Below, in pieces: positions 322 to 52,527 of a stretch of DNA of 64,000 nucleotides; positions within the stretch are counted from its first letter, which is position 1; each line of letters starts with the position of its first letter. Under the pieces are notes generated by a model. The model saw nothing but the letters and a program-made list of their open reading frames with translations, searched no databases and was not told the DNA's origin. Origin of the DNA: Lytechinus pictus. Its lineage: Eukaryota. The translations under genes were made by a program, and so were the position numbers. The stretch covers positions 10,046,001-10,110,000 of the forward strand of contig NC_087251.1 in assembly GCF_037042905.1 (NCBI RefSeq), in the 5' to 3' direction.

Positions 322-749
322 CTGGAAAATAGAAAACAATTGTAATAATCCTTAAAGATAAGAATTCACTTGTGTTATCGAAACATACGATTATGTTACC
401 TATATTAACAGAATCCAACAAAATGACTATCAAATGTTGCATGTAAATACGAGCCAAATGAATCTGGTAGAAAATTTCTTTAATAGTCTCATGATGAATA
501 GTAAACTACTGATGAATCCTTTATTTAGACAGGTGATTTCAAGGCATCTACTGGTTCAATGCACATCTTTTAATCATCATGATTTGAACTTTTCAATGAG
601 AATTTTTGACATCAATATTTCACAGAATTTGATATTACTTTAGTCTATAAAAACCCCAACAATTCCACATTTCTGTTACAAGGAATTCACTTGCGATTAT
701 AAAAAAATAACTTTACTGAAATTAATTTATACAAATTACAAAGAATTAC

Positions 750-890
750 CTTATTGAAGAGGAATGCTCTCCCTGTTGAACCAGTAAACCTTGTTGATAG
801 CAACTCGGCTCTGTTGGTGAGATTGGAATCACAGTTGGCGCAAGAATAGAGTCTGGTGCCACCCATGTGATCAAGGAACACACGACCCAT
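750..890 (-). CDS. YPEL5: Yippee-like 5, first coding exon ([11 protein letters not shown]...GRAFLFNK)
   Basis: Translation matches the YPEL5 N-terminus with CxxC (CANC). Acceptor TTTTAG puts the exon start at 915, ATG at 890, donor GTAATT after 750, phase 0. Confidence 0.95.
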
Positions 891-14324: not shown

Positions 14325-14417
14325 TCATTTGACAAGTCCATGTTTCTTGGCCTCAACCTCATATATAAGCAATCTCCACATCTTGACCACGAAGACTTCT
14401 GCTTCTTCATCCAACAC
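14325..14417 (-). CDS. RBM25: RBM25 coding exon 18 (last)
   Basis: VLDEEAEVFVVKMWRLLIYEVEAKKHGLVK*. Confidence 0.95.
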   Translation of the reverse strand: MLDEEAEVFVVKMWRLLIYEVEAKKHGLVK

Positions 14418-17400
14418 CTACAAAAAAGAGACAAAGAAAAATAAGGTAATGTAAATGTTATTGTATAGAGAGACTAAATTATGATCAATATAGTCCTGAG
14501 ATCTGTTTAATACGGGTAATACAGTGAAACAAAAAACAAAGATAAATTGGAACAACAATCTTTCATGACAGATTAAAAAGAATTCCTCTCTACTTTCCCA
14601 AGCTATGTCAACATATAAATAGGGGAAGGCGGGGTAAGTTGAGCATAGGGGCAAGTTGAGCCACCGCCCCCAGGCCAATAATGAATGAGTCAGACATTAT
14701 GGTGGTGTCATGTATTGATGACCCATTACATAACCATTAACCCCACCACATTGTTTTCAACTTTGAAACAAAAAGTATATTTTTAGGGGGAAAAATACAA
14801 ATTTCAGCCAAAAAAGTAAAAAAGGGTGTGAAATAGATAAGTGTTTTTTACACACACACTTCTTTACATATAATAAAGCATAAGAACAACATTGTCAGTC
14901 CAGGTATGGATCTTCATTCTTGTCACAGTCTTTTACATGATGGATACATAAGAAATGTGTGGATGCGAAATTATCGCATTAAGTTCGGACTGGGGTAAGT
15001 TGAGCCAGCAAACATGGGGCAAGTTGAGCCATGGTAATTCTTATGGTAATGTAAATAAAAACACAATCAAACCTTAAAAAGCCATCGATATGCAGGCAGA
15101 AAAGAGCAAATTCACATGACAGTTCTTTTACTTTTAGAGCCTGTTGGTATTTTTAGAGAATTAGCAAGTGAAAAGACTTTAAATAAAAAATTGACATGCT
15201 GGTTCTTCCCGCATACATTTTGTACATAGTTTTTGTGGCTCAACTTACCCTCGAAGGTGGCACAACTTACCCCATAGATGGGGCAAGTTGTGCCACTTGA
15301 CAACGTTTTTTTCAAAGGTCACAACGACTTTCAGTGTGGGGGTAGAAAGTTGTATATAGGTGAAAAAGATTTCCCAAGAATCATATTTAAAGGCAAGGTA
15401 CTTATTTCTACAATATTATTAGTCATATCAATTCTATCATGCAAAATGCAAAAAGTGTCACAACTTACCCTGCCTTCCCCTACATTTGTTTGAATAGCTT
15501 TCACTGCTCCATACTTTTGCACAACAAAGTTATGCAGTGTATTTTCCACAACATCTTTGGGTGCATTTGCAGTTGCTACTAAAATACTTATGACAAAACA
15601 GTCAATACTTCAATACCAAGTATTATATTCAGACGAATCCCATCCAATCCAAAAGATATTTCAACAGTGCGTTTTCCTCGTGGTTACAAAGCCTTAACAC
15701 AAGAATCTACAAGTTTGGGCCACACACCATGTTTGGGAACATGATGTCAAGTTTTTGGAACAATCATCAATGAAGATTGTGATACCTACCATGGTAATGT
15801 CATTGAGAATGCTCTCTGCATTGCTGTGTAATAGTAGCTTAGAACAGATGAACTCTGTCAGAGTAGGCTCCTCCTCACCGATGTATTCAACAATCTTCTT
15901 ATTGATCCAAGGTTTGATACGACGATCCATCAAAGACTGCAGAGAGAAGAGATAGAGAGGGTGAGAAAGAAAGAATTATTATATAGATTTCATCATTTCA
16001 TTCTGCAAAGTTGTCGTATTGTCAGTTCAATAATGAAAATAGTTCACAGAATTTTGTCACATGTATGGCCATAACAGGCTTTAACCTTGGCAACATAATA
16101 GGGGAAGGCGGGGTAAGTTGAGCATAGGGGCAAGTTGAGCCACCACCCCCAGGCCAATAATGAATGAGTCAGATATTGTGGTGGTGTCATGCATGGATGA
16201 CCCATTACATAACCCTTAATCCCACCACACTGTTTTCAACTTTAAAACAAAAAGTACCTTTTTAGAAGGAAAAATACAAGTTTCAGCCAAAAAAATTAAA
16301 AAGGGTGTGAAATAGATCAGTGCTTTTTACCCACACACGTCTTTAAATATAATAAAGAAATAAGAACAATATTGTTAGTCCACGTATGGATTCTCATTCT
16401 TGTCAGAGTCTTTTACATGATGGATGCATAAGAAATGTGTGGATGTGAAAATACCGCATTAAGTTCGGACTGGGGTAATTTGTGCCATCAAACATGGGGT
16501 AAGTTGAGCCATGGTAATTCCTATGGTAATATATAATAAAATAAAAAAAACCTTAACAAGCCATTAATATGCAGGCAAAAAGGAGCAAATTCACATGACA
16601 GTTATTTTACTGTTAGAAGATGTTAGAATTTATAGAGAATTAGCAAGTGAAAAGACTTTAAATAAAAATTGACATGCTGGTTCTTCCCGCATACATTTTG
16701 TACATAGTTTTTGTGGCTCAACTTACCCCAGAAGGTGGCACAACTTACCCCACAGATGGGGCAAGTTGAGCCATTTGACATCGTTTTTTTTTTCAAAGGT
16801 TACAATGACTTTCAATGTGGGGGTAGAAAGCTATATATAGGTAAAAAATATTTCCCAAGAATCAAATTTAAAGGCAAGGTACTTTATACTACAATATTAT
16901 TAGTCATATAAATTCTAACATGCAAAAAGTGTCACAACTTACCCCGCCTTCCCCTACCTATCGCATTAAAACAAATTTGGCTTTCATATCTCCACTCCAA
17001 GAGCAAAGTGTGTGTCAAGTCTTATGAGTCAGTATTCTGGGAATACTAAGGAAGTCGTTTCATCGCAAGATTTGCAGTGGACCAACTGCCTGACCATCCT
17101 CCAATAATATACTGATTCACCCTATCTAAACTGGGCTATTTGGGACCAGAATTTACTGGGGGGGGGGGGGGGGGGGATCTCGGCCGCTGATTGCGCGATC
17201 GCCGCAAAAATTTCCACGCGCGTAAAGCCGGATGTAAACTACAAGATTGTATAGAAGTATTTCAAAAAATTAATTGTTTATATTTTATATTAATTATGCA
17301 AATGAGCGTATGAAATTTGCCCTACTTTATAAATTTGGTTTTTGTGCATGTTTTTGCTTTTAACTCAATTTATTTAGCTAGTAGAATGCTAATTTTTGGT

Positions 17401-20400
17401 GGGAGTATCAATAATTACATTTCTAACAAATATCCACAAAAAAATTGCAAAAATATAATTAATTTCTTATGTATTTAATTGCTTTTTAAATTCTTATGTA
17501 TTTCTTTGTTTTTTCAAGCCTTTGTTTTTTATTGTTTTTTCCGATGAACTTTGTCGGGGACCCTTTTGCTATCATCAATAGCATATAATAAATCCATTTA
17601 AACCAACAAAAGTGAAAATAATCATACATTTATGATTTTTGGTTGAAAAACACAATTTGCATTGACTTTGTACACCGAATCACGTTTGTCAGACACTTTC
17701 GGGTCTGACATACACTTACAAAATGTTGCGTAATTTCGGAACTGTGTACCTGGGCGTCACAAATTTGGTCTCAAAAGATGCACAAGACTTGAAAGTAAAC
17801 AGTCAGTGAGCAGCGCGGTCAACAAATTTTGTGCACCGGCGAAGTGACAAAATTTGTCGAGGGGGTGTCAAATTGACCCCCCCCCCCAGATTATTAAGGA
17901 TTAACACCTGCTTCAAACTTTGTTTGGCGGGGACATAATTATGAGAAATGTCATTTTACAAAGCAAATTTACCTCATCTACTATTGCCCAGTCCACCTTG
18001 TACGCAAAGAGTTCTTCTTTGGCTGTAGGAATCTTCTCAATAAGGTTCTTGATGGTCTTTCGCTTCTCTTCTGCTGCATTAGCTATCATTTGTGACTGTC
18101 CCACAGCCATCATCTCTTCCTCTGAGTACTCAATAGGGACCAGCTTGCGTTTCTTCTTCCCTGCAGCATCCGCTGTTTCCTCCTGATTGAATACATCTCC
18201 TACTGTTAACTTCTTGCGCTTGCTGCCAACCTGCGCTGTAACCAAAGGCCTCTGGTGACCCTCTGTATTGGAGTTGGCTTGAGGGGAGTCTTGGGCACCT
18301 GTAAGGTGAGTAATGAGAATGGGATAAAGGAATTATTTCAGACTTAGCTCCACAATATAAATGAACACTGAGATTACCATTCATCATATATAGTCTTTTT
18401 TTTTTCATAATACAAACATTAAAACAAATGCTGTGATACAACTTGAACTCCTAATATAACCCTTCACCTAAAAAAAAGGGGGGGGGGGAGTTGCATCACA
18501 AACAATTACAAATCATGCTCACATTTGTCATATTGAGAACTTGTCATGCAAAAAAAAATACATTTCACAAGAAAATGGAGAATATATTGCAGAGGATATG
18601 TTTAAAATGTTGATTGATTTGCATTAAATCTTGTTAGAACTCACAAACAATTGAAAAGGCAAAGCATTGTCACACATGGCATGCATGTATGAAACTTCAC
18701 AGAAATGTCAAAATTTGTATCTATGTTTTAATACCATTCTGGCATTATTTGGAAGCAAGCCCCCCCCCCAAAAAAAAAAAAAATCATTTTGTTTACAAAT
18801 AATATTTCAATTACATTTTTGAACAAGGAGAAAATGGAAGATGATGCACATATACTTGCATTTTCTTTTGCCAGTTACCATTCTTAATAAATAAATAGCA
18901 CACAAACCAAATAATTATAGTCTCATTGAGCACAATCTAAAATATCTATGACACTTAACAATAACAGAAAAAAAGATAAATTTCATAACACAAAAATATA
19001 GATGAATATAAGAGCTGTATTTAAAGGAAGGTGTTAATGAAATATTTTAAGTACCCAGCTATTAGAAAACGGATGCAAAATCATCTTTAAGGTAATTCCA
19101 GACACGCAAAAACAATGGAATTGGTATTACTACCGTTAGTCTTACTCCAACATAAACAAATTATTCACCACTTTCTCTTACCACCTGAGAGACATATGAA
19201 GGTGGAACTAGGCAGAACACAACATGCAGTGAAAGTAGTACAATTCTGACTTGATTCATAGAATGTGTCAAAATACATTTGGAAAAATCCACAAATTTTC
19301 ATATCTTTATAAATTGACAGAATTACCAAATATCTGATGCATGAAGATTAACATTCCTGCTGTATACAAATCAGAGCATTTCAATATCAATTTTAAAGCA
19401 TGCAAGTTATGATTATCGCAATAAAGAAAACACATGGGTTATGCCAAAACATAGCAGTGAACAATGATTGCCAATTCACTTTGAGCAAATCCTAACTAAA
19501 ATTGTTGCACCGAAATTTGTGAAGTTACACAAACATGCCATGAATGTCTCTATATAAATATTTATAAGCTTATTATGATAGAGGGGGAAAATCCTTTGGC
19601 AAAATATATTTAGGTTCAAACTGTTGTTTGGTTCACAGTACCAACATATTGATGTAGTGTAGGCAGAAGAGCAAAAGCACTTCCATGTTTCTGTCAAGTC
19701 TCTAGCATTTCATTATATCCTAATTTTGATTGACCATATCGACATCATAAAAAGACAAGATCATTATATGACCACAATTTACCTAACATAACATTGCTGG
19801 ACATGTTTATTCCACCTGTTTAATAAAGCACAGCTGAAATAAAACACTACTCCTATGCAATTTACACTATTATAATTAGCTTAGAGTTCAGATTAAATCT
19901 GACAGGGATAACATACACCCAACTTATTCTCTCTTACTTAAAATCAAACGCACAATATAACATAGTAAGACTGAAAAACAATTCAAACATATGTATAAAA
20001 GACACCTCCTATATACTTTACCAGATCGATTCACAATTCACATACCGAATGTTTCTATCTTCTTTCTTTGTTCTTTCCCTCCTCTATTTTGTATTATACC
20101 TTGTTGCCATTTGTGTTATTTTATCTTTGTTTATTTGTACTGTAAGGGGTCATTTTTAATAAGCCATCATTTGTGCTTTTTGTGATCCCCCACTATACTA
20201 ATATGTATTGAACATTGTATTGATTTGTATATATTGTTGCTTCTTATAGTGGAAATAAATTGAATTGAATTGAATTGAAATTAAAATTACCCCGGTACAA
20301 CATTTTATGCACCAAGATCATCAAGTTCTTAATCATTATATTAAGAAAAACAAGAATAAGAAATCTCTTTGAATTGTATTTCATTGTTTGTATAGGACAC

Positions 20401-23400
20401 TAGCATACACTGGCTCCAGTGCAATGGCCTATTCAAACATTTGTTATAATCACCAGTGTTGTACTCCATTGATTGGTTATCTCTATCTAGTCTATGTTGC
20501 GGAAATTCCTCGTCTGAAGACATGGCTTCAACTGTATGGAAAGAATGGTTATCATCAACATCTCTCATTCTCACTATCTAATATCAAAGCCTGCTTTATA
20601 TCCCTCATATGTTGTCTTGTATATCAGGTAAAAGACTACAATGAAAAGTGAGGTTCATAAGGATTATGCCTTACATACAGAAGTCAATTATAAGCAGTTT
20701 TAAGGAACTGTCATAAATATTATAAGGATATCTAATTTATCTTAATACTTCTGATTTTAAGACAACAGGGTGAAAAATTATCTAGGACATGCTGCAAGAT
20801 GTAGCCTCCCTACACGTTCTATACTAAACTCAATTCTTTTCATAACCCTTTCAATAAGCCCTAGTTATACAAAATATTTCAGGCCATGAATGGCAACATA
20901 GACTGCCATTTATCTTACCTAGTTTAATTCGTCCGAATCCTAACTGCTGAGCTTTAGCAGCTGCTGAATCATCTTCTGATGATTGGCTGGAATGATCAGG
21001 GATGGCTTCAAACCCTCCTCCACCATCATCATCATCACTGCTACTAGCTGGAGTATGGGGTCCCTGATTGTTCTACATTTCAAAAGATCAATATTTGACA
21101 ATTATTACTGTGCCATCAAATAATGCATTATAGAGTTAATTTTAAGTTAATTTTGTTAGATCCTGACATTAGATTGCATATGAGAAAACTTCTGGGTAAA
21201 CCTGGTTTCCGTCATGAATTTCGAACCGATAGAATATCATTCTCTGATAATTTCTTAATTGTTAGTGCTGATTGGCTAAGAAGCACCAATCTCCAACTGT
21301 TCAACACTTTCATTAAATAATGGCCTTTCTGTCATTGGAAAGAATGCACAACTTCATGGCAAATGAAATGTATCCAATTCTCGCTACCCCAAATAGGAAC
21401 AAAAATCTCATAATGCGCGAGACGAGATAATTTTCACTCCGTCGGGTCGTCATCACCACTTCCGGTTCAGAGTCATGCTCGCGCGAGGTTCGTGATACTG
21501 AGTTTTCCACCACGCTGAAATCGATGCCAATCAGCGTAATATGTACAGATTATAATACTTTTTATTTAATTTGGTCAGTTTTGATTCTATTTGAATTATG
21601 AATAAAAATAAAAAATATATTTCACGTGAAAATAATTTTTATTCATGTTTTTATTAGGTTATAAAAAATTAAACAAAAAATGAATATCTTAAAATTTTGC
21701 ATTTAGCGACCGGCCTGACATTACGGTCGTATTCGACTAGACGCTAAATATATACAGCATTCATTCCGTTCAATTTTTCGTCGACCACAAAATGGATAAA
21801 AAATCAGTTTCGGAACTTTAAAAAAATCTTAACTGACAGAGGAATACCGTGCAATGGAAAGCGTCGGGCAGAATTTGTGACTTTAGCAGAAAAGGCCGTT
21901 AAACTGTATCGTGAAAGAGAGGGTTGTGATCACGAACTTTCCGAGCGAAAGCTATGTTGTGTTGTTGTGCATGACGGCACTGTTGATCTGAATGGCAAAA
22001 CAGTGCATTGGACTTCCGAACCGGAAGTTGTAATACCGAAAAAGCTATCCCATAATGCAATGCGCGTTACAGGGATTTTCCCGGATCTCGACGAAATCGC
22101 TATTTGGGGTAGCGAGAATTCAATATCCAAATCATTAAAATAAACTACAAAGGAAAGAAATCATGACAGAGTTGATTCATTGAGCACTTTGTCCTAGGCT
22201 TGTGCTGCTCCTGTTTTAGCAGAGATCCTGTTATACAGGTGTTGAGTGTCTCTTGAAACAGCCTTTTCTGCATTACCAATTGCTTTGTATAGGATGAAAT
22301 GTGAGGGCTGGTAATAAAAAGCCACATATGATTTCCTCTGGGTTTCCTGTGGGAAAGACATGGTTCTAACCTATGACAAGGTGCATTAACCCCCTTAGTA
22401 TTTGCTAGAGTATTTTCATACATAGAGCCTGTTACCTTAAACTATGGTAACTTGGTAAACAATCAAAAGTTTGCTTTTTTTGTTGTTGTAGCGACCATAA
22501 TGGCAATTACCATTTTTATAAGTCTTTAAGATATGATAAATATGGCAGAGTGCTGCAAAAGTAAAGGGCTTGTAATTTCTTTATTCTTCAAATATTTTAA
22601 TTATTGAAGAATTAAATAAAAGTTCATATACACTGTATGAAAAACATTTTTAGGCATTAAAGCAGAGAGAATTTCTTTATTTCTCATCTTGTAAGCAGTA
22701 TGAACTTTATCATCAGTGTCATTATCATTCATCACAAATATATCATTGTCTATCTATTTTGTTGCAGGAGTTCAAGAAGCCCATAATCTACATTCATTTT
22801 CAATAAATATTTCTAACCTCTGGTGGCATGGGTGCATCAGCTGGTTCAAATGTTGATTTCAAGGTGGGTGGTTGCTCCTGTTTGATCTGTAGCGCCCTTG
22901 GTGTTAAAAGTTTGTCAAGCTGTGGTTGCTTGTGTTTCTCTCGCTCTATTTCCAACTATAACAGTAAAAATATTTGTGGCACTCATCAACATAAAATTCA
23001 TTGAAGTACATGTATACCTTTAAAGAAGCAAAAGGAATTCCATATATTCTGAAATGTTAAGTACATTTGAACATTTTAAATATTTCTACAACTTTCGAGC
23101 TAGGGTTCAAACACCAATACATTTCCCAAAGTTTCCTCACTTTCAATAGCATAAAAATGTAAATTTTCATGGCTTTTCATCTGAGTTCCGTGCTTACATA
23201 AGGCAAGCCTAGTGCAACTATTTGAAATTATAATCTACACAAATTCAATCAAAATTTCCAAAAGAAATTGATTAACTTTCAGTGACTTTTGCTTATATCT
23301 TTGCTAACATGAACACTTCACCTCCATATAAATGTAAATTGCTTTCCACAAACCTTTTCTATTTCAGCATCTAGATCTTCCCCTCCTTCTTCCATCAGTC

Positions 23401-26400
23401 TTCGTTTGATATCTTCAATTTCCTCTCGTTCCCTTCTCCTATCCCGATTGTCGCTGTCTTCTTCCTTTTCACGTTCTTTCCGCCGTCTCTCTAGGGCACT
23501 ACCCCTGGTAACCACAACAAATTTAAAATATCAAACTTAAAAACTTAAGAAATGGCAATGTAGCCATACCCTAAATTCATTATTCATTTTCCCACAATTA
23601 TAAAAGGATTAGAAATGATATGAGCCTAACTGACCCTTTCAGAGTTTGCAACATGTAAACTCAAAACACACCAACAGAATATGGATATTGCAAACACATA
23701 ACTATGGTCATCCCCCTCCTAGCACTGCACAATAATGACAATAATGACAATAATATTGATATAACATGACATTGAAACTTCAATGACTACATGATGTTGG
23801 GTCAAAGATATACCACCTCCCGCTTTATCAAAAGCGATCAAGGTGTTAGGATGTTTCTGACCAGAAACCTGTCTTGAAATGCTATCAACCAATGAGGTGG
23901 GGTCATAAAGCCAAAATATTTTCTTATTATCTTAATCAAATTACTAGAGTCCACGCAAAAGAGTCATAGAAACGACCCTACCAATTTCCACTCCTAAATC
24001 TATCGCATCTTATTTATGTGTTAGGCTTAGCTGAAGAAAGAGTGGTTGGTATGCATACCTGCCAACCTTTGATAATAAAAAATCAGTATCAAAGTCACGA
24101 GGGCGCCGAGCGGGTCGCGCGCGAGATAGTTTCCCCCTCCCATGGTAGGGACTCTGCATTTTCTGCATGTAAAAGTAGCATTTCCCTACCCTTTTTAAAG
24201 CAAATTTACCCTCTTAACCATACCACAGGATGACCTACATGTAACGTTAGTCTACTTATATGTAATATAATATCATTTATCAATCAAACATTAAAACAAG
24301 GGTCTTTAAGATATCACGTTTGTGACAAAAAAATACACCCAGTTTCATTCAGGTGTGATTTGTTTTCATTGAAATCTATATAGATTTAGGAATAATTTGA
24401 TTTTGAGCATATTTTTGTAAGGCCCTCTATTGTTGGAAAGTTTCTGGAAAGATTCTCTTTTTAATCAGAAAAAAACTAATTTCAAGAATTCAATTGAGTT
24501 TTGGGCCAAGGGATATTTTGTATCATTAATTCAGATTCAAGTTGGCCTAGCCTACTGTATTAAAAACTGAGTGCAAAAAAATCTAACAAGTGATGGAATC
24601 ACTTGAGTGACGCTGTCATCAACTCAACATCGACAAGCTCATTCAAGAAGGCCATTGACAGAGCTTTCTAATCCTCACCCCGCCCTCTCTCACCCGATGC
24701 GTTTATGCCCAGGAGGGCCCTGCATCGTATACATCCAGATCCAGAACATTTATTTATCATTTATAATTATATCAAGTCTATCATATGCATCAAAATAAGC
24801 CAAACATTGTCATCTTATTCATGTTTATATTTCACCACACAGGAGTAGTGACTGAGGACAAGGTTATATCATAACCTTTATTAGATAAGTGCTTGTTGGC
24901 ATAAGAAAGCATATTTTCAGCCATGACAAAAACGGAGCCGAAGTAATACGGCGGAATACGCCCGACCCGCACCCACCACTGCACTTGCGGTGCGCCGATG
25001 AGACTGGGAGGCTGAGGCGCTGCAACTCGGGCGCCGGGAGTTTAGGCAAGCGAAGCAAGTAGATTTGGCGTTCGGCTCCGATGGATCAACTTGACTCGAA
25101 AGTTGATAATTGCCGCTTTCTTTCTCACAAATTTGACAATTATTCGAAAAAATAAAGTACAGATCAATTTAACATTGCGTAGGGATAAACTTGAGTAACT
25201 GCGGCAGAGCCTCCCGATGTGCACGGCGCGGCCGATCGGCCGGGTAAGCAGGCGCCGGTAAGCAGACTCATCAATGATATTACCAACACACTCTAGACAC
25301 CAGGACACGACTCATTCACTAACTCATTCCACAATACAAAATCATCCGGCGAAAAGAGCAAAACCTCGAATAAAAAGTGAAATTATCTTACTAAATCACC
25401 ATATTTCGCGTCAAAAATATCACCATCCTTAATTCTATACATCGTAGTTAGGAAACAAGGGGTCTAAAAAAGTGAATTTTTCACGGTTTTTCCGATGTTC
25501 GTGGATTTTGAAAACGTGTCCTCACTGAAAACTGGCACTTTCGCGAGCCGATGTCAGCCGCCATTTTGTTCCGGAAGTCAACGCTAATATCGGCCGCGCC
25601 GCTGTGGCCGCTGCTCGTAATTTTCACATGCAATTGCAATGGAACTGTGCACTTAGCACTTAGCCGTGCGCCCCAGTTGTTTATGCGTTAGTCGTATGTT
25701 ACAGCCGCTTATGCGTTAGTCGCATCATACAGCCGTTTCAATAATTTCAACACTATATTGATTGACCTAAAAATCGGAATTTTGGTTTAAAAATTCGGAA
25801 TTCGGAATGGAGGCTAAAAAATCGGTATAATTCCGCCAAAATCGGAATGGTTGGCAGGTATGGGTATGTGAACATTGTTGGAATGATGAATAATAGGATA
25901 TCACTGCAGGTGAAAACTAAATACTGTAAACATTTAATATCATGGAGCTTTGCCCCTTCTAAGTCTTTGAAGTATCCATAAGTACATCATCAGTAATGAT
26001 TAATTTTTTACTATAATTTTTCAAATATCAAATACATGTACATGAATCACCATTTTGAAGTTATATTATACCTTTTCAGAATTTACCAACCCTATATCAA
26101 ACTCATAATACTGAATGCCAAGATGTCTGTGAATGACATCTTATATGCAAACATGTACTCACTTTTAAACAAAGAGGTTATCGATTTACTTACTTGTAAT
26201 ATTTGGGGTCATCTCTCTCATCTTCATAGTCTTCAAGGAATTCTTTGAGACGTTTACCTTCTTTATCCATCTCACTCCTTTCAGATTCTTCTTTTTCCAT
26301 CATCTTCTCATGATCTCTCTGTTTCTTGCGTTCTCTCGTTTCCCAATTCCTGAGACGCTGTAATAGAGAATAAAAACACACATATATCATGTATGATGAG

Positions 26401-29400
26401 ATATTTCATGTTACACCTGTGACACTGTTTGACTTGAAACTTTTACAAATTACATACAATTTTGTGACACTTTACTTCTTGTAAAGAGTGTTCTTTAAAA
26501 CTATTCAATTTTTATCACTTAAAATTTTATGTAAATGTATACAACTGGAGTGATAAAACTATAAACCCTCAGATTTCTACTTTTATCAACACTCTAAAAT
26601 GCACATGTATAACATGAACTCGGAGATCAACTTACCTCTTGATATGCTTCCTCTTTTTCTCTGAGTTTACGTTCAAGTTTCCTCTTCTCATAATCTTCTT
26701 CTTCTTCAAGACGATCTCGATCCCCATCTCTGTCACGATCACGATCCCGATCTCTCCCTCGCTCGCGGTCATAGTCTCGATCGTAGTCTCTGCTTCTGTC
26801 GCGTTCATACCTGTAAATATATTTCATAACACTGTCATTTCAATCAAGAAAATGCTTTTTGTGGCTTTAAACAGAAAACACACAAAATTCTCTTCTAGGC
26901 TTAACAGTCCATCTTAAAGATATGAAGATTTAGCAAATAAAACCAAAAAAAATCACAATACATTTTTTCTGCAAATTCATCTTTCAATCTCAAAGCACAA
27001 GGGGGCACTTAAATAACATAAGTTTTCAAATGCAAAAACATAACCAACCAGCCCTATGATAATTTCTTATCTGATGGAGTAAACTACTCAAAATAAAAAT
27101 TTGAAAGCACAAATATATCTCAACCTCATGAACTTTAATTTCATACACACTAACACATATTCATACCATAAATCATGCAGAGAAAGCATGAGTAATGAAT
27201 TATCTTACCTCTCTCTTTCATCCCGTTCTCGTTCTTCTCTGATCCTTTCCCGCTCACTCTCTCTGTGTCTGTCTCGTTCTCTGTCCCTGTCTCTCCTCTC
27301 ACGTTCCTTGATCTGTTCTCTCCTCTGCCGATCCCTCTCTCGTTCCTTCTCTCTCTCCCTCCGGCTCTTCTCCTTCTCCTCTGGAGTCTCCTTCTGTTCT
27401 AGTGCTTCCCTCTGATCCTGTAGACAGCAAAATAGGAAATAACAGCTATGTGTAGTTATCTAGTATAAAACATGGTGACATTGCTTAGATCTAATGGGGT
27501 ATACTTAATAATTAAAACCACTCAGTTGACACTTTAAAGGGTAATTATCCTCACATCTTTACAGGGTTCTACAATGTTTGCTGACACTGTAAGTCTGTAA
27601 TATAATTTGTTAGTGTATCTTGTGGTAACAATATATGCATCAACAGACCACAAATTACACATTTTGTTATAGAGAATGTTCCACATGGAACTACAGTCTA
27701 TCAGTGATGCATCAATGCCACAAGTGCACATGAAAAGAGCATGGGCAAATGGTATCTGTATTAATCCTTTTGTGCAAGTACAATAATATCCCTTTAAGTC
27801 AACTTTCTATGGTATGGGAACACATAACATGTAGTATCCTAAAATTATGTTTTCTGACAGGTATATTAACAAATGCTAAGGTATCAAGGGAATTAATCCA
27901 ACTCAGATTCTAGCATGGATTGAAATAAATTTGAGTTTGGAAATGCAGTGCGCAGTCTGTTAAAAATAAAGTTTGTTGAAATAATTCCAAAAGGGCAAGA
28001 TCAACAATCAAATAGAATGAACCAGATTTTCAGTACACTGGAATCTTGTAAAAAAAAGTAACTCTTTGGAGATCTATATATTAATTGGTGCAAGTTTTTT
28101 TAGTATGAAAGATCAAATTTGAATATGTGGATGAATTCCCTTTTCACAAAGACAAATAAGAAATATTAGTGAAATAAAAGCTACTACGTAAACAGGTCAG
28201 GGAATATAGACAATGCTTCACCAGCCTTCTCCATGAATTGCTGCCAATTTTTCTTCTCTTTTTAAATAATTAATCAATTGGCACCCTGCATTGGCTAATA
28301 GTGTCACAAATCATAGAAATTTAAATATCTAAACAAAAAAGAGCTGTGATCTGTCTTACATCCCCTGGCCTACCAAGGCAACATTTGGACCTCATCCAAT
28401 TACAAAACCTATTTCCATTGGCAATGCTTGTCCTGCTCCTGCTCCTCCATGAAGTGACCTTTTCCGCTGGAATCCAAGGCTTGGCTGTAATCTCTGCTAT
28501 TTACCCCATCATTTCCAATATATTCATCAGAGCAGTTCGTGTAGCATTACAGTTAAGTCAGTTTTCTTTTCTTTTTTTTAATACTTAACTATCATTGCCA
28601 CTTTTGCAGAGGGCTGCTAGCTTGTAGAAATGAAAATGACTGATGATAAATGTCTCCAAATGTCAACATTCAGTATCAGAACAATTGGAAAGCAGTCTCG
28701 GTCCAGACAGGATTCAATCTTGGAGAACTTGAAGGCATGGCGGAAGACTGCTCCATGTCGCAACGTTGACTCCGATGATTGTAGCTTGACAGGACCAATG
28801 GATAACTCAATGTGGAGAAGGTCTCAAATATTGCCTTGCTTTTACATTAAAACAAACTTAAATCATCAAAAGGAGGTACATGGGGAGAGCATGCAGTACA
28901 CATCATTTCATCAATCAATGTCTAACAATAAAGGGATGAAAAGGAGAACACCTCAAACAATAGCTATATCATCATATTCAAGCAAGAACTTACAAAATGT
29001 CATCTTGCTTTAACAGTGCCTTGACAAATCTAAGATTATCAGGTGCAAGTTTTGTGTAAAATGCTCTGAACTGCCCAAAGACAAAAATGGCAATTAACTT
29101 TATCATATTTCAATTTCAGGATAGTTTATGAAGCATAAATAAATTCAATGATCCTTGCTAAGTCTGTGCTGACATTTTTCTCCAAAATACAGCAACAAGA
29201 TCAATCTTAAATGAAATTTGAATATATTTTTGCATTTTTCCCCCAAGGTCTGAAAGCCTGCACCATTTTGAGAACTTTGGGCATAAGCACAGGCACATAT
29301 AAATACATACATATTCACCAAATCAATCTTATAAAATAAAAAGCAACAGTGAAATGAAACAGCATAAGTAATGAAAGCTACATTGTATTGACTTGCGCAT

Positions 29401-32400
29401 TACAGTGACATCTTGGGAATCTTGCTCGGACTGGATGGAACTTCAACTTCTCTGCTGGCGAGCTTCTCAGGCCTGACAATTCATCGCATGATTGTCATAC
29501 TACCATGTGACTTGTCACATGACACATATGTCACATATGATCATGTAACTAACTTAGTAAACATATTCAATGCCAACTAGATCATTTTCATTAAGTGAAA
29601 TTATTCAAACAAGGTTTGAAATTGAACGTGATATATAATTGAAGAGGAGATGACCAAATTGATGAAACAATGTTAAACATATTAAAAAAACATGTCTCCA
29701 CTAATAGAATATTACAAACAAGAAAAACAAATAATTAAACATTAAAAATACACCAAAATTTTGAAGAAAAAAAAAGATCACGAGTAAAGCCTTTTATGAA
29801 AAAAATATTGACATAGGACATACTTAAGAACCTATTTTTTTCATCTCTTTTTTGCTAAAAATATATATATAATTTGTTCTATCTGTGAATATCTATAGAA
29901 AGGAAATAAACGTAAAATGACTTGGGGATCGATCTACAAATAAAATGAATATCTGAATTGTACAGATAACTAATGTTCATCCCCTAAAGATGAGTTTGAA
30001 TTTAAGAGTAATAATAATCCAAAATGTCAAATTTTATCATTACCAGATGAGTAAAAATGGTAAAGTACACACATACACTTGTACCTTCATTCTCAATAGC
30101 TTTCCATTAGGTCTTGAACTGATAGTATGTCATCCTGTTAATGAAATAGATACTAGTTAATTATACACCACAATCAAATACATTCCACATACCTAATTGT
30201 ACAGCATCCTCATCTGTTGGATCAGCTTCAATCAGCCCAATGATACACATCCAATACCATCAAAGTTATTTTAGTGTAATTTAACATTTCCTCTCCCAAG
30301 AATAAGTCATTTACTGTCCTTTACAACGAAACAAAATATTTACTAATTTCATTTTATAAAAAAAATCCCATTGGCAACACGGAGCTAAAATATACAGTTG
30401 CAAGGTAAATCAATGTACAGTGCCCACCACCTAAAAAATAAACCTTTAAATAATTAGCATGAATAAAGTAATAAAACATGATAAAAATGAATTGCATATA
30501 ATTAAACATAATAGGACAATTGATTAAAAGAGCATGCTGTCTATCAAAGAAGTCTACAGTTTCATAAACATTTACAGAAGATAAAGGATCCACATACCTG
30601 TCAATTTTAAGGTCCAAAATACCTTCCATATCCTGCAATAAAGAGATCTAATTGATTTCCTAACCAAAATAGAAAGATATCAAGTACTCACCCGTGATCA
30701 AACATTAAAAATTGAATCAGACGCAGGCTGCAGCGACTATCACGCCCCCTGACGTAGGCCCAAGCCATGGGGCCGTTGAAGGAGTACTATAATAATCATG
30801 GCAGGGGTACAATTGTTGCAATGAGAAAACTTATTTTTATCACGAATTAAATTCAAGCACACATATGTCTACTAGCCCTGATATGTTGATCTAATTGTTA
30901 TTCTCATCATCGTTATGATACCCTCTTTCAAAAATTCCAAAATTATTTTGATACCCTCTTTCAAAATTTCCAAATTCTTGAACAAATAATGCCAGCAAGA
31001 GCTAACAACCTGGTAATAATAGCTCGCTACATACATCCCAATACAAACAAATGTAATAAAAAGGATCTATAATCCTCTCATTTCTGTGTTATATAGGAGT
31101 GCAGCCGATCTCTGCACACAAACCCAATCAAATAACAAGTTTCTGAAATAAATTTTCATATGGATTTTTCGCTTTTGATGAGTTTTGCTCCAGGTTGTTT
31201 TTTTTTTAATTCCTGATGAGTCTTTATCTTCTTACATCCATTTTCCACTTATTATATGTTAATAGAAAAGATAATATGGGGGCAACAGCATCCTGCAAGA
31301 TGAAAGCAAAGGTAAAGAACATGATTTATACAAAGATAACTTTAATTCAATAAAATCATTGAGAAGGACAGGAATGTCAATCTTATGGTGTATTCTTACC
31401 TTATATGATTGTCTGAAACGATCAATCTCACGGTTTATGAGATCTTTCTTCTCTTCCTCTAAATTCATGTCATCAAGCTTATCCTGCAATTAAATGAAGA
31501 ATTAAGGAAAATATTCATAGGAAACAACAAGCTATAGACCAATGGCTATTGAACTTTGTAAACACATAAGCAAATCTATTTAAATGAATATGAAGATAAT
31601 TCAAAAATAGGTTTCATTGAACAAGACAGTTAAAGCTGTCCCTATTAAAAAGGCAGATTTGTATTCTCATGTCTCTCTCTTTTCTGCTACAATTTGTCAA
31701 ATCATTCCAAACTGTTGCCTCAAATCTTACTTAAAATGAACGCAACATTATATTTCTAAGTAATGATTACATACCAACTGAATAAAGTTGTATATAAATG
31801 TGGATATTCATTTTTACATTCATTAAACAGGTGTTTCATAAGCTCAAAATAATAAGCAAGCCCAACAAGCTCGACTCACAACAACTCTGACATGATTCAC
31901 TGGTTTATTTTTTTTTCAATCTCACAAGAATGTTGTGAAGCATATAAATGTGACATTCTACAAACATACGACAAACATTCAACTTAATTTTATATTTGCA
32001 AGCCAATATAGGTTTGGTGCATATTACATGCACTGGTCAAAGAAATGGAATCAGTAAAAATCTGTCACTTCTAATACATGAATCAATGAAATAGCCAGGT
32101 AGATCAGGAGAACGACATACCTTAGCCTTTTGCTTCTCATCTTTTTGCGTCTGCTTCTGCTTCTGAACACCATGGAAGGGCTTCTCTTCTGGTGCTCCTG
32201 AATGACCAAAAATAATGCTATCAGGAACACACATAACATAAATGCAAACAACAATACAGCATGACAACTACAGGTTATCTTTTCTATAATTATGAAGTGT
32301 CATGAATATGAGCAAAGGGATTTCTCCCAATATGACAATTATTCTCAAACTACTTTAAAATAGTCATATGTAATTCATATACAAATTCAATCAGCAATTA

Positions 32401-35400
32401 TGTGGGATATATAGGACCTGCAAATCAGGTTGCTGCCCCATTAAAAACTAATGCTGTCACGATGAATCATTTAAGCTATATATCACTGTGCATCCTTCGT
32501 TAATACTGTTCACCTAGCAATCAACAGGCCTTAAATTTTCACATTTTCATGGCAAGGCTACTTCTCATTAGGGCACATTTCTACAATACAGCACAAATGA
32601 AAAATAAAAGATGACACAGCAAATTTCAAAGACCATTGAAAGGGGCATTAATGTTAATCAGAAGGGCATCCAAAGGACAGATCTTTGATGGCCTTGGTAA
32701 GCCCTGAATCAAAGAGCCTGTACATTCACATATTTATACCTGGTGCTCTCTGTAGCTGTGAAGAGTAATCATGGATAAGTCTACGCATGTAAGTCCTGAC
32801 TTCAGCATCTTCCCTCATTGTAGACTCATCTAGCTCAGATGCCTGGATAGAAAGAAAGTGCATGACTGGTGCTTTAGGGAGTGGTGGAAATAAGGCATAC
32901 CTGAAAGTGCATGTGATTTCCATACAGCGGGGTCATGTATTTGAACCATAACAAAGCACTGGCATCCTTTGGCAAGTTGTCAATCTAAACTTTGCCACTC
33001 TCCACCCAGGAGTAGATGGGATACTGATGTAGCTGTGTGGTAGATACTATGGTATCATTGCTATAAAATGGTAACAATGATAAATCTGAAGTGTCATGAG
33101 CATCACAAGGCAGCAGATGCTACGGTAATTCATGTATTCATTATTTTGATAAATCATTATCATTATTTTGAAAAATAATTACTCTTATTGTTTTGAGATA
33201 TCATAAAAGGATATTCCTTACCTGATCTCCCTCCCTCTTCTGTAAATATTCATCAAGAAGTGTTCTTGTTTTGCCATCAACTTTAACCTGAACAATAAAT
33301 TAAAAATGGAAATGAAGTTTCAATGACAAAGAATCATAATATGTATGAATTAAATAAAATAAATAGGAAACATATATAGGCTGTTATACTGCCTGGATAT
33401 CTGGATACAGGGCGGGAGGAATAAACAAATTCCTTGAAATGATAGACAGTATAATACATTATGAAATAATTGATTTTTCAATTATTTCAAAAAAGGCAGT
33501 TCCTTTCTTGCTGCAACAAGCTTTGCAATATTATCCTTTTCTGTATTGTTGTTTATATTGTAGTTTACTTACTATTTTTTTTCAACTTTTACTGTTACAA
33601 TACTGTCATGTTTTTTATTACAAAGTGAAATAAATCTCAACTGAATTGATTTGAATAATCATGCATTCTATTGAATTGTGACTGATACTAAGTGTACTAC
33701 TCTGATAACCCTGTACATACGCATATGTACAATTTAAAAAGTTATATGTAAAGACATAGTTAAGACGTTTTCTTACCAAAAGTTTTTTATCTCCTATGTC
33801 AAGTTCATGAAGTAGACGGATAGCTCTAAGACTTGCATCTGGGTCTCCATACTCACAGAAACCAAAGGCTTGTAGTTTTCCCGATGCTCCTTGTACTCTC
33901 TTCCAGCTCAACACCGCACCACATCTCTATACATTGTTAACAAATAAATTGCTCAACACCGCACATCTCTATACATTGTTAACAAATAAATTGCTCAACA
34001 CCGCACCACATCTCTATACACTGTTAACAAATAAATTGCTCAACACCGCACATCTCTATACATTGTTAACAAATAAATTGCTCAACACCGCACATCTCTA
34101 TACATTGTTAACAAATAAATTGCTCAACACCGCACATCTCTATACATTGTTAACAAATAAATTGCTCAACACCGCACATCTCTATACATTGTTAACAAAT
34201 AAATTGCTCAACACCGCACCACATCTCTATACATTGTTAGCAAATACATTATTCAAAGGTTTTACAATCATGGCTAATATGTGATACAAAGGGGTTTCAG
34301 GGAGTTTTTATTTCTCATACAGTACAACAGGTATTTGGTGTGTATACCCGATTTGTATTTTTAAAATTGTATTTCCAGACAACATAGCGATTTAAATAAA
34401 TTCTGGAAGCAATATTTCATAAATTGTCACATTGTAATGTTGGATAAAATGACTGAGAATGAATGTCCACAATTATCTGTGCTATTTGATGAAAAGAAGA
34501 GGTACCAATAGCATTTCTGTTTGTTCAGATACCATTTCCTTTATTAAACTACTCATTTGACAATCATCTCAAAAATGATTAAAGTGACAAGTGGAATATA
34601 AAAGAATATGACCTCAAATATTATATACATTTGGTGACAATTATTTTATACAGGTAATTCCATATAATATTCAACCTTTTTATATAAAAATTTAAAAGAA
34701 TTACAACTTTTCATATGAATAAAAACAGGAAGATCCCACTCATACGTACTTCATGGAATTGCCCTTATCCATTGGTCACTAAGTTCCTACCCCCCCCATC
34801 ACCCTCCCCTCTCCCTCCAATATTCCATGCCCCTAGTCCAACACAAACACTACTCACTATGAAATGAACATAGAATACAAAATCATTGAATCATATTAAT
34901 AGCTATATGAAATACTTACACCAAGTAAGCCTCTAATAAGTGTATCTGGTGCACGGTCGGAAATATTCCCCACAAAGACGGTTGTCTTGGGTTTATTTGA
35001 ATCTTCAGTCCTTTCTTCCTTCTGAAAAATAAAGCAACAATATTGACTTCATAAAAGACATGAAATATTGCACATTTAAAAAAGCTGATTACCCAAATAT
35101 TTACACTCAATCAAAGATCATGGATCAATTGCTTTTATAGTCAGAAGTATTTGTGGGATGTAAAAATTACCAATTGATAAGGTTTGAATATGTAACTTTG
35201 CCAGGGTAGAAAAACCTTGTACTTTAAAAAAAAATCACTTTTTTAATTCCTTTACCATCTCCAAGTGATAATGTGTGAGAATCCTAGCTCTTTATAGGGT
35301 TTCACATTGGATAGAGTGTTATGTTGGCTGTATTTTTTATTTCTCTCTCTCTTGTAGATAAAAGGTTTTGCTCACACAAGCAGTGATAAATCAGTCAAGC

Positions 35401-37584
35401 AATACTAAAACATAGTGCAACAAAGCTCAGCTACATTTTGTGTAGAAAGTCAATGAAATAAAGACGTAAAATAGAAAAGTCTTCGGCCTGCACAACGAAA
35501 CTCGTGACATCATAATGAATTCATTATGACATCATATTACACACCTCAAGCCATCATAAAAAAATCACTGTGATGTCATGAGTTTTTGAAGTGTGAAATG
35601 GGCATTGATTAGCATGGTGAGATTTGCCTCACTATGTTTAACCACTATGAAAAATGGTGCTGAGTTTTTTATCGCCATAACTAATCTAGGCTTCATTCTC
35701 TGGAGTCAGCCAGTGATATAATCCTGAAAAATAATATCTCAAGAGAATTTGCCAATTAATATTGCTACTACTTTATACAGAAGGTGAACACTTACAGGAG
35801 GAACAAAAGGTTTGACAACTGAAGAAGATCTGTTTGAAGACTGGTTGTTGGTAGATACAGCTGTCTGGAGACATTAACGAGAAAAATAAAAAGATAGGGG
35901 ATTAATAAAAAGTGAATAATTGAAAGGTAATAATAGTAGTTCTCGCATTACAAATGAGTGATGTATTTACTAATGAATACTAACTAGAAATTTGCATTGC
36001 AAAAGCATTGTCATCTGCCCCCATCATCTATTATATTACAGATAATAAAAGTGATCATTTAAATAAACATGTAGATGATATCAGATTTATATAACTTGGG
36101 TAACCTTATCAATAATATCATCCTTCCTGATGGCACTTTAAAATAGTTACAAAAAATTATATATCGATTGATAAAAGTCATGTTTTAGCGACGCATTAAA
36201 AATGCATATTTTGGTCGGCATCAAATGTCTGTTCAATACGGGAGCATACTCCTCAAAGGACCAAAATCTGACCAATATCGCATTGGCACCTGTACAAAAC
36301 TTGCTGCTCAATATGAGACCGTATTCAACAGTCTAGTGTGCATGCGCGAATGCATGAAATATACAACACGGCTGTACAACAATGAATGCAATGCGATGCG
36401 CATCATAGAGCACAATGATACTTATAATGACGTCATAATAAAATACATATCTACGATCAAATTTGATCTTGAGGCTGTATTAACCGATTGTGGTAAGTGA
36501 CTTGACTTGCTTGATCACATTTTTCCTCTTTTTTGGGGGGGTGGGGGGGAGTGGTGTGGGATAGATAATAATTATATTGGGTGGCTTTATTTCATGTAAT
36601 ACTAGAATCATTCCACTCATCTGCGATTCATGTATATTTGCCCTAACTCTTGAAATATTTCTGGAAATTCTGGTATTCCATTCTGAGCCATCCTATATAG
36701 GCCTAAATATAAAATGAAATACTATTGACTTATAATCATTGTTCAGAATTTACATCTAGTGCATAAAGAAAATTTAGTAGCATTATGTGCTTAATCACCA
36801 TACTACTGCTAGATCTACTCAGTGGGGTGGTAGTGCGGAAATCAATTCATAATAGATAATAGATAGCGGGTTCAGATATTATTTTTAATAGTTATATATG
36901 TGTTATTTACAGAAATACAAACAAAATTTCCTAATAAATTATACAAAAATACAAAAGATTGGTGAACTTACCCCTGGTGGTGTTGGTAAAAGTCCAGACA
37001 TTCTAACGTTTTGCCTCACTGAAAAAAAATGAATTCCAGTCATTATACAACACACATAAAATTAGATCATGAGGATACAGTAGAACTCTCATTTTTGGGA
37101 AAGTTATGATTCATAAAACACACTAATCATGTCTTCTGCTTGGAAAAAAAGAGGTTTGCAAAAGTGAACTTTGCCCCAGACAAACATAGATTTGCAATGG
37201 ATCTATTGGTTTACAAAAGATGATATTCATGTGTGCGCCAGTGTAGGTCCCATAACAATGTAATTCTCAAATCACCGTCAAAAAGCAATTTTCTTCTGAA
37301 GATTGCAGACTTACTCTAAAATACTAAAAACATTATTGTTACAGCCAAGGTAACAAACATCAAAATTTGACAAAATTACTGAATCAAGTTTCTACAAAGC
37401 TAACTTCCAAAAAAAAACTCTCACAAGCCCGTTTGAAAAACAAATAAAAAACAAAAACAATATTCTTTTGTAGTTTTAGTGTTTTACCTTGTGACATTGA
37501 TCCAAATTGTGAATACTGTGGCCGCATGCCTGGTGGGTATGTTCCTGGCGCACCAAACGGTGGCCGTCCACCAGAGAAGGACAT
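14325..37584 (-). CDS. RBM25: RNA-binding protein 25 (Snu71/RED120 family splicing factor), 18 coding exons, ~783 aa
   Basis: All exons join in phase with GT-AG boundaries (2352 nt). RRM (TTVFVGNIS...SWKRVQGASGKLQAFGFCEY), RE/RD-rich middle and C-terminal PWI (IKPWINKKIVEYIGEEE...VLDEEAEVFVVKMWRLLIYE). Confidence 0.95.
14620..15482. mobile_element. Tc1/mariner-type MITE, copy 1
   Basis: TA-GGGGAAGGCGGGGTAAGTTG...CAACTTACCCTGCCTTCCCC-TA with subterminal repeats. Confidence 0.85.
15790..15936 (-). CDS. RBM25: RBM25 coding exon 17 (PWI core)
   Basis: SLMDRRIKPWINKKIVEYIGEEE... Confidence 0.95.
16099..16956. mobile_element. Tc1/mariner-type MITE, copy 2 (same family and orientation)
   Basis: Colinear with 14620-15482 and has the same TIRs. 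Confidence 0.85.
17116..17904. mobile_element. Degenerate piggyBac-like MITE
   Basis: Ends resemble TTAACCCT...AGGGTTAA, with a subterminal G-run (17157-17176) and C-run (17877-17887). Confidence 0.5.
17973..18298 (-). CDS. RBM25: RBM25 coding exon 16
   Basis: KRKKLTVGDVFN...KRKLVPIEY...LIEKIPTAKEELFAY; phase 1 to 0. Confidence 0.92.
20919..21072 (-). CDS. RBM25: RBM25 coding exon 15
   Basis: NNQGPHTP...FGRIKL; phase 0 to 1, donor GTAAGA. Confidence 0.8.
21376..22121. mobile_element. Non-autonomous TIR element
   Basis: AATTCTCGCTACCCCAAATAG / CTATTTGGGGTAGCGAGAATT inverted termini. Confidence 0.75.
22818..22955 (-). CDS. RBM25: RBM25 coding exon 14
   Basis: LEIEREKHKQ...PMPPE, 138 nt in frame. 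Confidence 0.8.
23354..23504 (-). CDS. RBM25: RBM25 coding exon 13
   Basis: GSALERRRKERE...; phase 2 to 0. Confidence 0.9.
24054..25862. mobile_element. 1.8 kb non-autonomous DNA transposon with 6-bp TSD
   Basis: TIR CATACCTGCCAACC / GGTTGGCAGGTATG. Direct repeat GGTATG at 24048-24053 and 25863-25868. GC-rich interior. Confidence 0.85.
26194..26357 (-). CDS. RBM25: RBM25 coding exon 12
   Basis: RLRNWETRERKK...LKEFLEDYEDERDDPKYY; phase 0 to 2. Confidence 0.92.
26636..26810 (-). CDS. RBM25: RBM25 coding exon 11
   Basis: ...YEKRKLERKLREKEEAYQE; phase 2 to 0. Confidence 0.92.
27209..27417 (-). CDS. RBM25: RBM25 coding exon 10 (RE/RD-rich)
   Basis: Open purine-rich frame; phase 0 to 2. Confidence 0.9.
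31400..31483 (-). CDS. RBM25: RBM25 coding exon 9 (DKLDDMNLEEEKKDLINREIDRFRQSYK)
   Basis: Conserved RBM25 helix, canonical sites. Confidence 0.9.
32121..32197 (-). CDS. RBM25: RBM25 coding exon 8
   Basis: GAPEEKPFHG...KAK; phase 1 to 0, donor GTATGT. Confidence 0.8.
32740..32842 (-). CDS. RBM25: RBM25 coding exon 7
   Basis: ASELDESTMRED...; phase 0 to 1. Confidence 0.85.
33222..33287 (-). CDS. RBM25: RBM25 coding exon 6 (VKVDGKTRTLLDEY...)
   Basis: End of the RRM, canonical sites. Confidence 0.9.
33777..33926 (-). CDS. RBM25: RBM25 coding exon 5 (RCGAVLSWKRVQGASGKLQAFGFCEY...KKLL)
   Basis: RNP1 motif. The acceptor lies in the last unit of a tandem repeat. Donor GTAAGA. Confidence 0.92.
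33906..34250. repeat. Tandem repeat, 8 units of 42/45 bp spanning an RBM25 intron-exon boundary
   Basis: Unit GCTCAACACCGCA(CCA)CATCTCTATACATTGTTAACAAATAAATT starting at 33906, 33951, 33993, 34038, 34080, 34122, 34164 and 34206. Confidence 0.97.
34920..35021 (-). CDS. RBM25: RBM25 coding exon 4 (RRM start, KTTVFVGNISDRAPD)
   Basis: RNP2 motif and canonical splice sites. Confidence 0.92.
35796..35864 (-). CDS. RBM25: RBM25 coding exon 3 (TAVSTNNQ...PFVPP)
   Basis: CTCCAG acceptor, GTAAGT donor, 69 nt in frame. Confidence 0.75.
36972..37018 (-). CDS. RBM25: RBM25 coding exon 2 (VRQNVRMSGLLPTPPG)
   Basis: TTTTCAG acceptor, GTAAGT donor, phase 1 to 0. Confidence 0.75.
37488..37584 (-). CDS. 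RBM25: RBM25 coding exon 1 (MSFSGGRPPFG...SQ)
   Basis: Acceptor gives exon start at 37663, ATG at 37584, donor GTAAAA, phase 1. Confidence 0.85.
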
Positions 37585-51311: not shown

Positions 51312-52527
51312 ATGGCCAAATTCATCACACCTGTATCAGAGACAAGAGAAAATGTACAAAGATTAAAAGGGGACTACCGTTATGGACATTTTGAGGTCAT
51401 CCCAAACCTTCCAACCTCAGGTCCTGCCCAAAATTCTGAAAAGCATGTCAGGACTTATTTCAATAACAAACAAATATTCCGAACCATTTGTGAGTGGTTT
51501 GAGGTCTGGATGCCATGGCAGAGGCGCATTGTTCTCTGTGGTACTACAGATAGGTGTTCTACATCTCAGCTTGAGTATCTTGCTACAGCCTTAGAACCAG
51601 TGTTTCACAGGGACTTCCAGACCTCCCTGAGAGGGAGCTATCCATCACTGACCTCCAGAAAAGTGATCCACACCAATGAACAATGGGAGAGAGCAGTTAA
51701 AATGGCAGATTCTGATTTGAGTATTGTCTACACTAAGAAAGAGAGCCAACCTTTGTCAAACAAAGAGTTACATTCTGTAAACACATTTGCTTTAAAATTT
51801 GTCAGTGGTGTCATTGCTGAAGCAGTTCAGATAGCTGCAAGAAAGGATGCAGAAGACAGTTCTGGTGTAGACTCTTATGATGACAGTCAGAAATCAAAGG
51901 GCAAAAAAGGACATCAGAGAAAGCCTTCGCCAATAGTAGAAGTCCAAGAGACCTCACCCATTGTAATTGAGAGTAATGGATCTCGTACCTTGAGCCCAAC
52001 TACTAGTCGGTCACAGCAAAGTGGATGTTCATCATCTTCCAAAGACACTTTGCTGAAAGTTCCAAAGAGTGAAAGGACCAGTTTCTCTGGCACAAAACAC
52101 AGCACAACTTCCAGTCAAAGAGATGGCCTTCTGTTTATAGAGCGGAAGAGTGTTGACACCTCATCTTTCGTCAACCAAATTAATTCTTCCGCTCACCCCC
52201 TTGAGTCTTCCTTTTCTGCAAAGCCATCAGAAAGGCGAAAAACAAAGAATCGATCAATGGCTTATAATCAGTATTTCTGTGGACAGGAGGATACAGGCTT
52301 AGTTGATCAGCATCACTTGGATGCTCTACCACCTCTTGAGGCCAAAAAGGTGTCCACTTTCAACTGGTGTATGAGTCACAGGGTCACACCTTCTGCAGGG
52401 TCAACTGTAGCTGGATCAGCAGAAAGCCATAGAAGTAAACTACACAAGCACACCAAGACCTATCCAACCCCAGGAAGTGCAGCAACCACAACAGACTTCT
52501 TTGATCGCTCAAAGATACAGAAACTAG
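51312..52527 (+). CDS. F-box gene coding exon 1 (MAKFITPV...KIQKL)
   Basis: Acceptor TTTACAG ends at 51304, ATG in AAAATGG context, 1216 nt open, donor GTAAGA. Confidence 0.85.

Follow-up and report, generated by a model that had tools for sequence, protein, structure and literature searches.

Eight tandem copies of a splice acceptor at the intron 4–exon 5 boundary of RBM25 in the sea urchin Lytechinus pictus: a probably tolerated, mirage-like minisatellite

The mirage minisatellites of amphioxus consist of tandem copies of an intron–exon boundary, in units of 10–160 bp, and include arrays on the acceptor side (PMC3087553, PMC3902484). The hosts named there are Adh3, the globin genes BflGb6 and BflGb9, troponin C and PGBD5; haplotypes differ, and splicing is reported to be undisturbed (PMC3087553, PMC3902484). 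In the human CBS gene, the variant 844ins68 duplicates a 3′ splice site together with the start of the exon, and the distal copy is used with formation of a normal mRNA (PMC2630376, PMC1802585). The 37-bp VNTR in intron 7 of human F7 has an edge unit that spans the splice junction (PMC1557585). A further system is the control of splicing factors, including SRSF, TRA2B, RBM39 and SMNDC1, by their own products through poison exons and alternative splicing coupled to nonsense-mediated decay (AS-NMD).

The window analysed here, 64,000 nucleotides of L. pictus contig NC_087251.1, contains an RBM25 gene that is intact and single-copy. Its coding region comprises 19 exons (14325..37584, minus strand) and encodes 809 amino acids identical to L. 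pictus RBM25; the exon boundaries were sought by comparison with database protein P0121 (809 aa), and one solution remained. RRM_1 and PWI domains are recognized by Pfam, and a genome DNA search and a protein search gave one match apiece, at the same place. Coding exon 4 (34920..35021, minus strand) has 34920 as its last base and is followed by a U2-type donor, GTAAGT. Coding exon 5 (33777..33926, minus strand; 150 nt) encodes the core of the RRM, is in phase 0 at both ends, and its 50 residues are 100% identical to RBM25 of L. pictus and 92% identical to that of Strongylocentrotus purpuratus. Coding exon 6 lies at 33222..33287 (minus strand), as placed by RNA joints and the boundary search. 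The introns flanking exon 5 measure 993 and 489 nt, both longer than 250 nt, and internal exons of the gene range from 47 to 326 nt. All four members of the cluster of L. pictus database proteins are full RBM25 isoforms with the normal junction, and the boundary search of all 19 exons revealed no duplication at any other exon edge.

Elsewhere in the gene, exon 16 (20454–20531, minus strand; 78 nt, in frame) is missing from isoform P0122 (783 aa), and S. purpuratus RBM25 likewise has an isoform that is 26–27 aa shorter (782 versus 808/809 aa); this exon may be a conserved cassette exon. In exon 11, the window and P0121 (809 aa) have one more unit in a run of RD dipeptides (26636–26810, minus strand) than P0001 (807 aa) does, so that two database versions differ in the length of a coding repeat.

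At the boundary of intron 4 and exon 5 there is one tandem array, at 33906–34250, with a period of 42, 8.0 copies, 94% matches and a score of 588 (TRF). Both TRF and comparison of the units confirmed the original prediction of eight tandem acceptor copies at this place. The units lie head to tail on the minus strand and measure, in transcript order, 45, 42, 42, 42, 42, 45, 42 and 45 nt. Each joins the last 24 nt of intron 4, with TAG at their end, to the opening 18 or 21 nt of exon 5, and the candidate exon starts of units 1 to 8 are 34226, 34181, 34139, 34097, 34055, 34013, 33968 and 33926. The TAG is retained and the splice junction reads AG|AG in all eight. Unit 1 (34206..34250) is a 45-nt edge unit with two private changes, at intron positions 34247 and 34240, and has the lowest acceptor score. 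Units 2–5 (34038..34205) are four identical 42-nt units in which 3 nt are gone from a GTG-GTG run in the exon part, and unit 7 (33951..33992) has the same 42-nt sequence. Unit 6 (33993..34037) is a 45-nt unit with an A>G change, which gives an additional, out-of-frame CAG (AG at 34022–34021) and turns one NNV into NSV. Unit 8 has the 45-nt form and carries the AG that is used (33927..33928), as witnessed by the joint 33926–34920 in RNA. The unit lengths are indeed all multiples of three, as had been pointed out, and this carries little weight: a first unit would have such a length by chance in one case out of three, and loss of 3 nt accounts for the 42-nt type. The earlier description of unit 1 as set apart by GCTAAC holds in that this unit differs from the others, and falls short in that the difference consists of the two changes mentioned above and not of GCTAAC alone.

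Since the units are so nearly identical (91–100% alike, with five the same), the array is probably young. On inspection, rather than in a tree, the five interior 42-nt units are identical while edge unit 1 stands apart; the duplication junction, also inspected by eye, displayed no clean microhomology. The homogenised interior and divergent edge units are also found in amphioxus mirages (PMC3087553), and the unit, like that of the BflGb6 array, combines the 3′ end of an intron with the 5′ part of the exon behind it (PMC3087553, PMC3902484). The RBM25 array shares these features of a mirage: a boundary-spanning unit, here of 42/45 nt, retained splice signals, edge exclusion, and normal splicing, the last as judged from low-depth RNA with NMD active. 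The host is different, being a sea urchin and the gene a splicing factor, and copy-number variation and somatic instability are described for amphioxus only; in the present material a differing first unit in RNA run X1, seen in one contig at depth 2.7, may hint at variation between haplotypes. Likely, then, the array is a tolerated, mirage-like repeat rather than a control device. According to the Rogers model of intron gain, a duplicated AG|GT site can serve as both donor and acceptor (as cited in PMC3087553); this was rejected for RBM25, where all eight units read AG|AG.

The repeat is also present in RNA. Run X1 yielded a contig of 188 nt at depth 2.7 that reaches from position 34377, in unique intron, across the first acceptor to 15 nt inside the second unit; it includes 150 nt of plain intron and hence is unspliced. 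Five positions of this contig differ from the window, four of them listed, and through three of these differences its first unit has the sequence of window unit 6. It likely represents another haplotype, because the changes do not resemble errors, although a single contig of such low depth may be chimeric. The ancestral status proposed for the GCTAAC copy is thereby left unproven, as the first unit of the X1 contig, like window unit 6, is of the GTTAAC type. Runs X2 and X10, the second of them from a separate study, each gave one 72-nt contig with no mismatches and with the same 30 letters at both ends; such ends imply one complete turn of the 42-nt unit, from which copy number cannot be read. 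The duplication and the 42-nt type are thus present in three runs from two studies, and the array is no assembly artefact, given that the repeat junction is found in RNA contigs of each of these runs. It is hardly credible that the real locus has one unit: the X1 contig spans unique intron into a second unit, the cyclic contigs of X2 and X10 point the same way, and assembler error would not be expected to yield units of three types arranged non-randomly, even if the exact number of eight is taken from the assembly alone. An exact-pattern scan of metagenome contigs for the array gave 0 matches. Among the DNA runs of organism B, X5 had no coverage and X8 covered only 34404–34480, with exon and array outside.

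With respect to the acceptor that is used, all seven raw junction reads from exon 4 lead to 33926 (one in X22, five in X23 and one in X24); these runs are rRNA-depleted RNA, about 6% of each was read, and the array genotype of the animals is not known. Raw RNA depth in the same runs was zero over the array bins 34010–34855. The 34920>33926 joint is present in all three mRNA contig sets, at a depth of 200 in X1, 95 in X2 and 34 in X10, and in X2 and X10 it is the sole loose end of exon 4. Neither a joint nor a loose end at an upstream AG occurred in the six RNA-type runs (X22, X23, X24, X1, X2 and X10). Skipping of exon 5 was considered as well and found unsupported, no such joint being listed in the RNA. 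Junction mapping from the donor at 34920, with NMD active, therefore places every observed joint at 33926, and of the options offered in the original prediction the RNA, through both the reads and the contigs, fits the one in which the spliceosome skips seven near-identical acceptors.

The splicing data are steady-state, of low depth and obtained with NMD active, contigs drop rare forms, and zero upstream reads out of seven allow an upstream use of up to 35% (95% bound). The question whether the array is a mildly leaky allele has to be seen in this light. Upstream AGs would then attract a few percent of splicing, without regulation and more so with rising copy number; NMD would clear these products and leave RBM25 slightly lower, as a side effect and not as a device. 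The seven intact AGs share the context of the true, weak acceptor, the raw-read bound is loose, array k-mers occur in the RNA of three runs, and many human loci show a link between repeat length and variable splicing (PMC10078293). However, the six RNA-type runs contain no upstream joint or loose end, the X1 array contig is unspliced, and exon 5 skipping is not listed. Array-type contigs have a depth of 2.7 versus 200 for mRNA in X1, 3.2 versus 95 in X2 and 2.5 versus 34 in X10; if all of them were due to mis-splicing, the share would be 0.6–7% in X2 and 1–14% in X10, the spread reflecting which AG is taken, with contig depth being a poor measure of isoform share. Taken together, a leaky allele is unlikely.

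The consequences of an upstream choice can be read from the sequence. When exon 4 is joined to any of the seven upstream AGs, 13–14 residues follow before a stop at the TAG of the next unit, and the RRM frame is kept from acceptor 33926 only, in agreement with what had been noted from the sequence. The stop would fall at codon 119–120 of 809, with 14 junctions downstream. Every upstream AG is followed by a stop because intron 4 is in phase 0 and ends in TAG: the TAG is in frame whenever the length of an acceptor copy is divisible by three, and a copy of different length causes a frameshift. That a single open frame starts from the last AG is thus automatic and no sign of design.

This bears on the idea of a regulatory decoy array, in which RBM25 or another factor shifts splicing upstream, towards NMD, with the gain set by copy number. 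RBM25, with its RRM and PWI domains, is itself a splicing factor, AS-NMD autoregulation is common among such factors, and an early stop follows every upstream choice. Poison exons are alike in these respects: the host is a splicing-factor gene and the alternative choice introduces a premature stop with numerous junctions after it. Yet poison exons are ultraconserved, and the RBM25 array is probably young and is repetitive, with no alternative isoform seen and no sign of feedback; the high conservation of known poison elements is stated in PMC11357089. A stop-bearing RBM25 isoform, the hallmark of an AS-NMD element, was absent from the six RNA-type runs, in which NMD was active, the stops are automatic for an acceptor ending in TAG, and similar arrays occur in Su(H) and V-ATPase C, where no link to a splicing factor is needed. 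Published RBM25 autoregulation of this kind was not found in the literature covered, which lacks most subscription papers. We consider a regulatory decoy array highly improbable, and neither it nor the hypomorphic allele put forward earlier gained positive evidence from RNA checked with NMD active.

A more elaborate possibility is that the array acts as a copy-number dial on RBM25 dosage, with an upstream share hidden by NMD and set by the number and type of units, the 3-nt loss having spread because it hides the decoy AG. Open 45-nt units would in that case be opposed to self-masking 42-nt hairpin units. We regard such a dial as very unlikely. If it were true, the gene of a core splicing factor would have only just acquired AS-NMD control, in the form of a segregating minisatellite.

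Why the last copy is chosen cannot be explained by the acceptor itself. On a matrix built from the 17 other RBM25 acceptors, units 2–5, 7 and 8 score 2.1, unit 6 scores 2.7 and unit 1 scores −1.4, where real RBM25 acceptors range from −2.8 to 11.4 and about one-fifth of 1022 intronic AGs score no lower than the true site at 33926. With acceptors so weak and nearly identical, acceptor sequence by itself cannot decide the choice. A U12-type intron was also considered. The donor consensus of such introns is RTATCCTT, and their branch site is close to the AG; a YTAAC motif does precede every AG by 11 nt, but with GTAAGT as the donor this candidate is not supported.

What differs is the sequence that follows. 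Behind unit 8, positions +22 to +61 (33866..33905, minus strand) are 70% purine and 47% GC with five GAR triplets, whereas behind units 1–7 the same positions fall in the AU-rich next unit, with 55% purine, 30–38% GC and one or two GAR triplets. By composition only, 33866–33905 is a candidate splicing enhancer. Furthermore, the exon measured from acceptor to donor would be 150 nt from unit 8 and 192–450 nt from units 1–7. In human data, where flanking introns are longer than 250 nt, exon definition prevails more readily and preference goes to the sites that are nearest to each other over the exon (PMC9225289). In the same study, competing human 3′ sites lean upstream overall, and exon definition only lessens this lean, with no clear reversal (PMC9225289). 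Since the lean persists, proximity alone may not explain the near-exclusive use of 33926.

It is instructive to return to the human loci here. CBS 844ins68 resembles RBM25 in that an acceptor is duplicated and the distal copy is used, but it consists of two 68-bp copies as compared to eight of 42/45 nt. In CBS, use of the distal site is promoted by runs of G that lie between the two, whereas the RBM25 array is AU-rich between sites and has no G run of four. At the F7 VNTR, identical pseudo-sites are silent and splicing goes to the copy that adjoins the complete exon, as in RBM25; the F7 repeat is on the donor side and the RBM25 array on the acceptor side (PMC1557585).

Folding may contribute to the choice, too. 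For the 42-nt units, the prediction is a hairpin of 12 pairs whose GAGA loop lies over the AG, at −10.2 kcal/mol versus −6.4 for unit 8. Over 30 folding settings, the acceptor of unit 8 was among the three most open in 29 and the most open in 13, and that of unit 1 was often as open. Compared with shuffled units in tandem, the 42-nt unit folds no better (z −1.2). An apparently strong fold of the whole array (z −3.6 versus plain shuffles) was rejected on the same grounds, with z values of −1.2 and 0.1 from tandem-shuffled units. RNA structure may thus be a minor, unproven help in acceptor choice.

Our preferred reading, to which we assign a probability of roughly 80%, is that the array is a young minisatellite of the intron 4/exon 5 boundary, that the transcripts seen splice to its last copy, likely by exon definition, and that the upstream copies are near-neutral. 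One 45-nt tandem duplication may have been followed by a 3-nt slip in the GTG-GTG run, giving the 42-nt type, and unequal exchange or slippage would have expanded and homogenised the interior while the edge unit diverged. Exon definition would pick the last AG by means of the purine-rich, GC-richer exon sequence and the donor 150 nt away, and the long flanking introns (993 and 489 nt) are consistent with this mode for exon 5. In addition, the predicted hairpin of the 42-nt type may hide five decoys out of seven. The seven upstream units would be removed as intron and hence be close to neutral, and any rare leak to an upstream AG would presumably result in an early stop and clearance by NMD. 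Such arrays may persist at genes of this genome because their geometry is harmless.

Two other genes of L. pictus have comparable arrays, as established at the DNA level. In Su(H), a 64-nt acceptor unit occurs 9.9 times before the BTD exon (L103:1628–2260), and in V-ATPase C a degenerate 86-nt acceptor array precedes an exon. In view of these, the splicing-factor host of the present array needs no special account. Splice-junction arrays are recurrent at unrelated genes and not dense: a base-rate sample of 1 Mb of the same genome, in five 200-kb blocks, contained 86 arrays with a period of at least 20 and 42 candidate frames at 29 of them, none with a Pfam match, while the positive control was recovered; this screen is blind to exons outside Pfam domains and works without an exon count as denominator. 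Inspection by eye of seven of the 86 arrays revealed no clear splice-junction case.

Su(H) has a second acceptor duplication as well, of 111 nt and 1.9 copies, one exon earlier, before the exon that starts the BTD domain (L104:2645–2852; G000:C6).

The RBM25 array thus offers a natural and compact test of 3′ splice-site choice, with eight near-identical acceptors that differ only in what follows them, in an animal kept in the laboratory. With it and the arrays of Su(H) and V-ATPase C, the range of mirages widens beyond lancelets to include echinoderms, for which no case was found in print, in a literature that lacks most subscription papers. If leakage that depends on copy number were to occur, control by unproductive splicing could arise in one step from a repeat.

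Some observations on the surroundings may be added. An intronic stretch of about 50 nt at 32962–33010 attracts most of the aligned raw RNA reads, all with loose ends on both sides, which include the motif GTTCGAATCC; it is likely a tRNA-derived SINE fragment that is matched by transcripts of other loci. The neighbour at the left end of the window is a Yippee-family gene (94–950, minus strand; Pfam), and to the right an F-box gene lies within 51189–57545 (plus strand; Pfam), where a 451-aa frame at 51189–52541 has no Pfam match. A 40-bp minisatellite of about 52 copies is present at L042:97–2145, for which the screen found no exon link. Finally, a family of 163-bp tandem units occupies 2436–3009 of the window and occurs in 7 of 100 sampled 10-kb loci, on several contigs (L032, L035, L046, L058, L064, L081 and L085).
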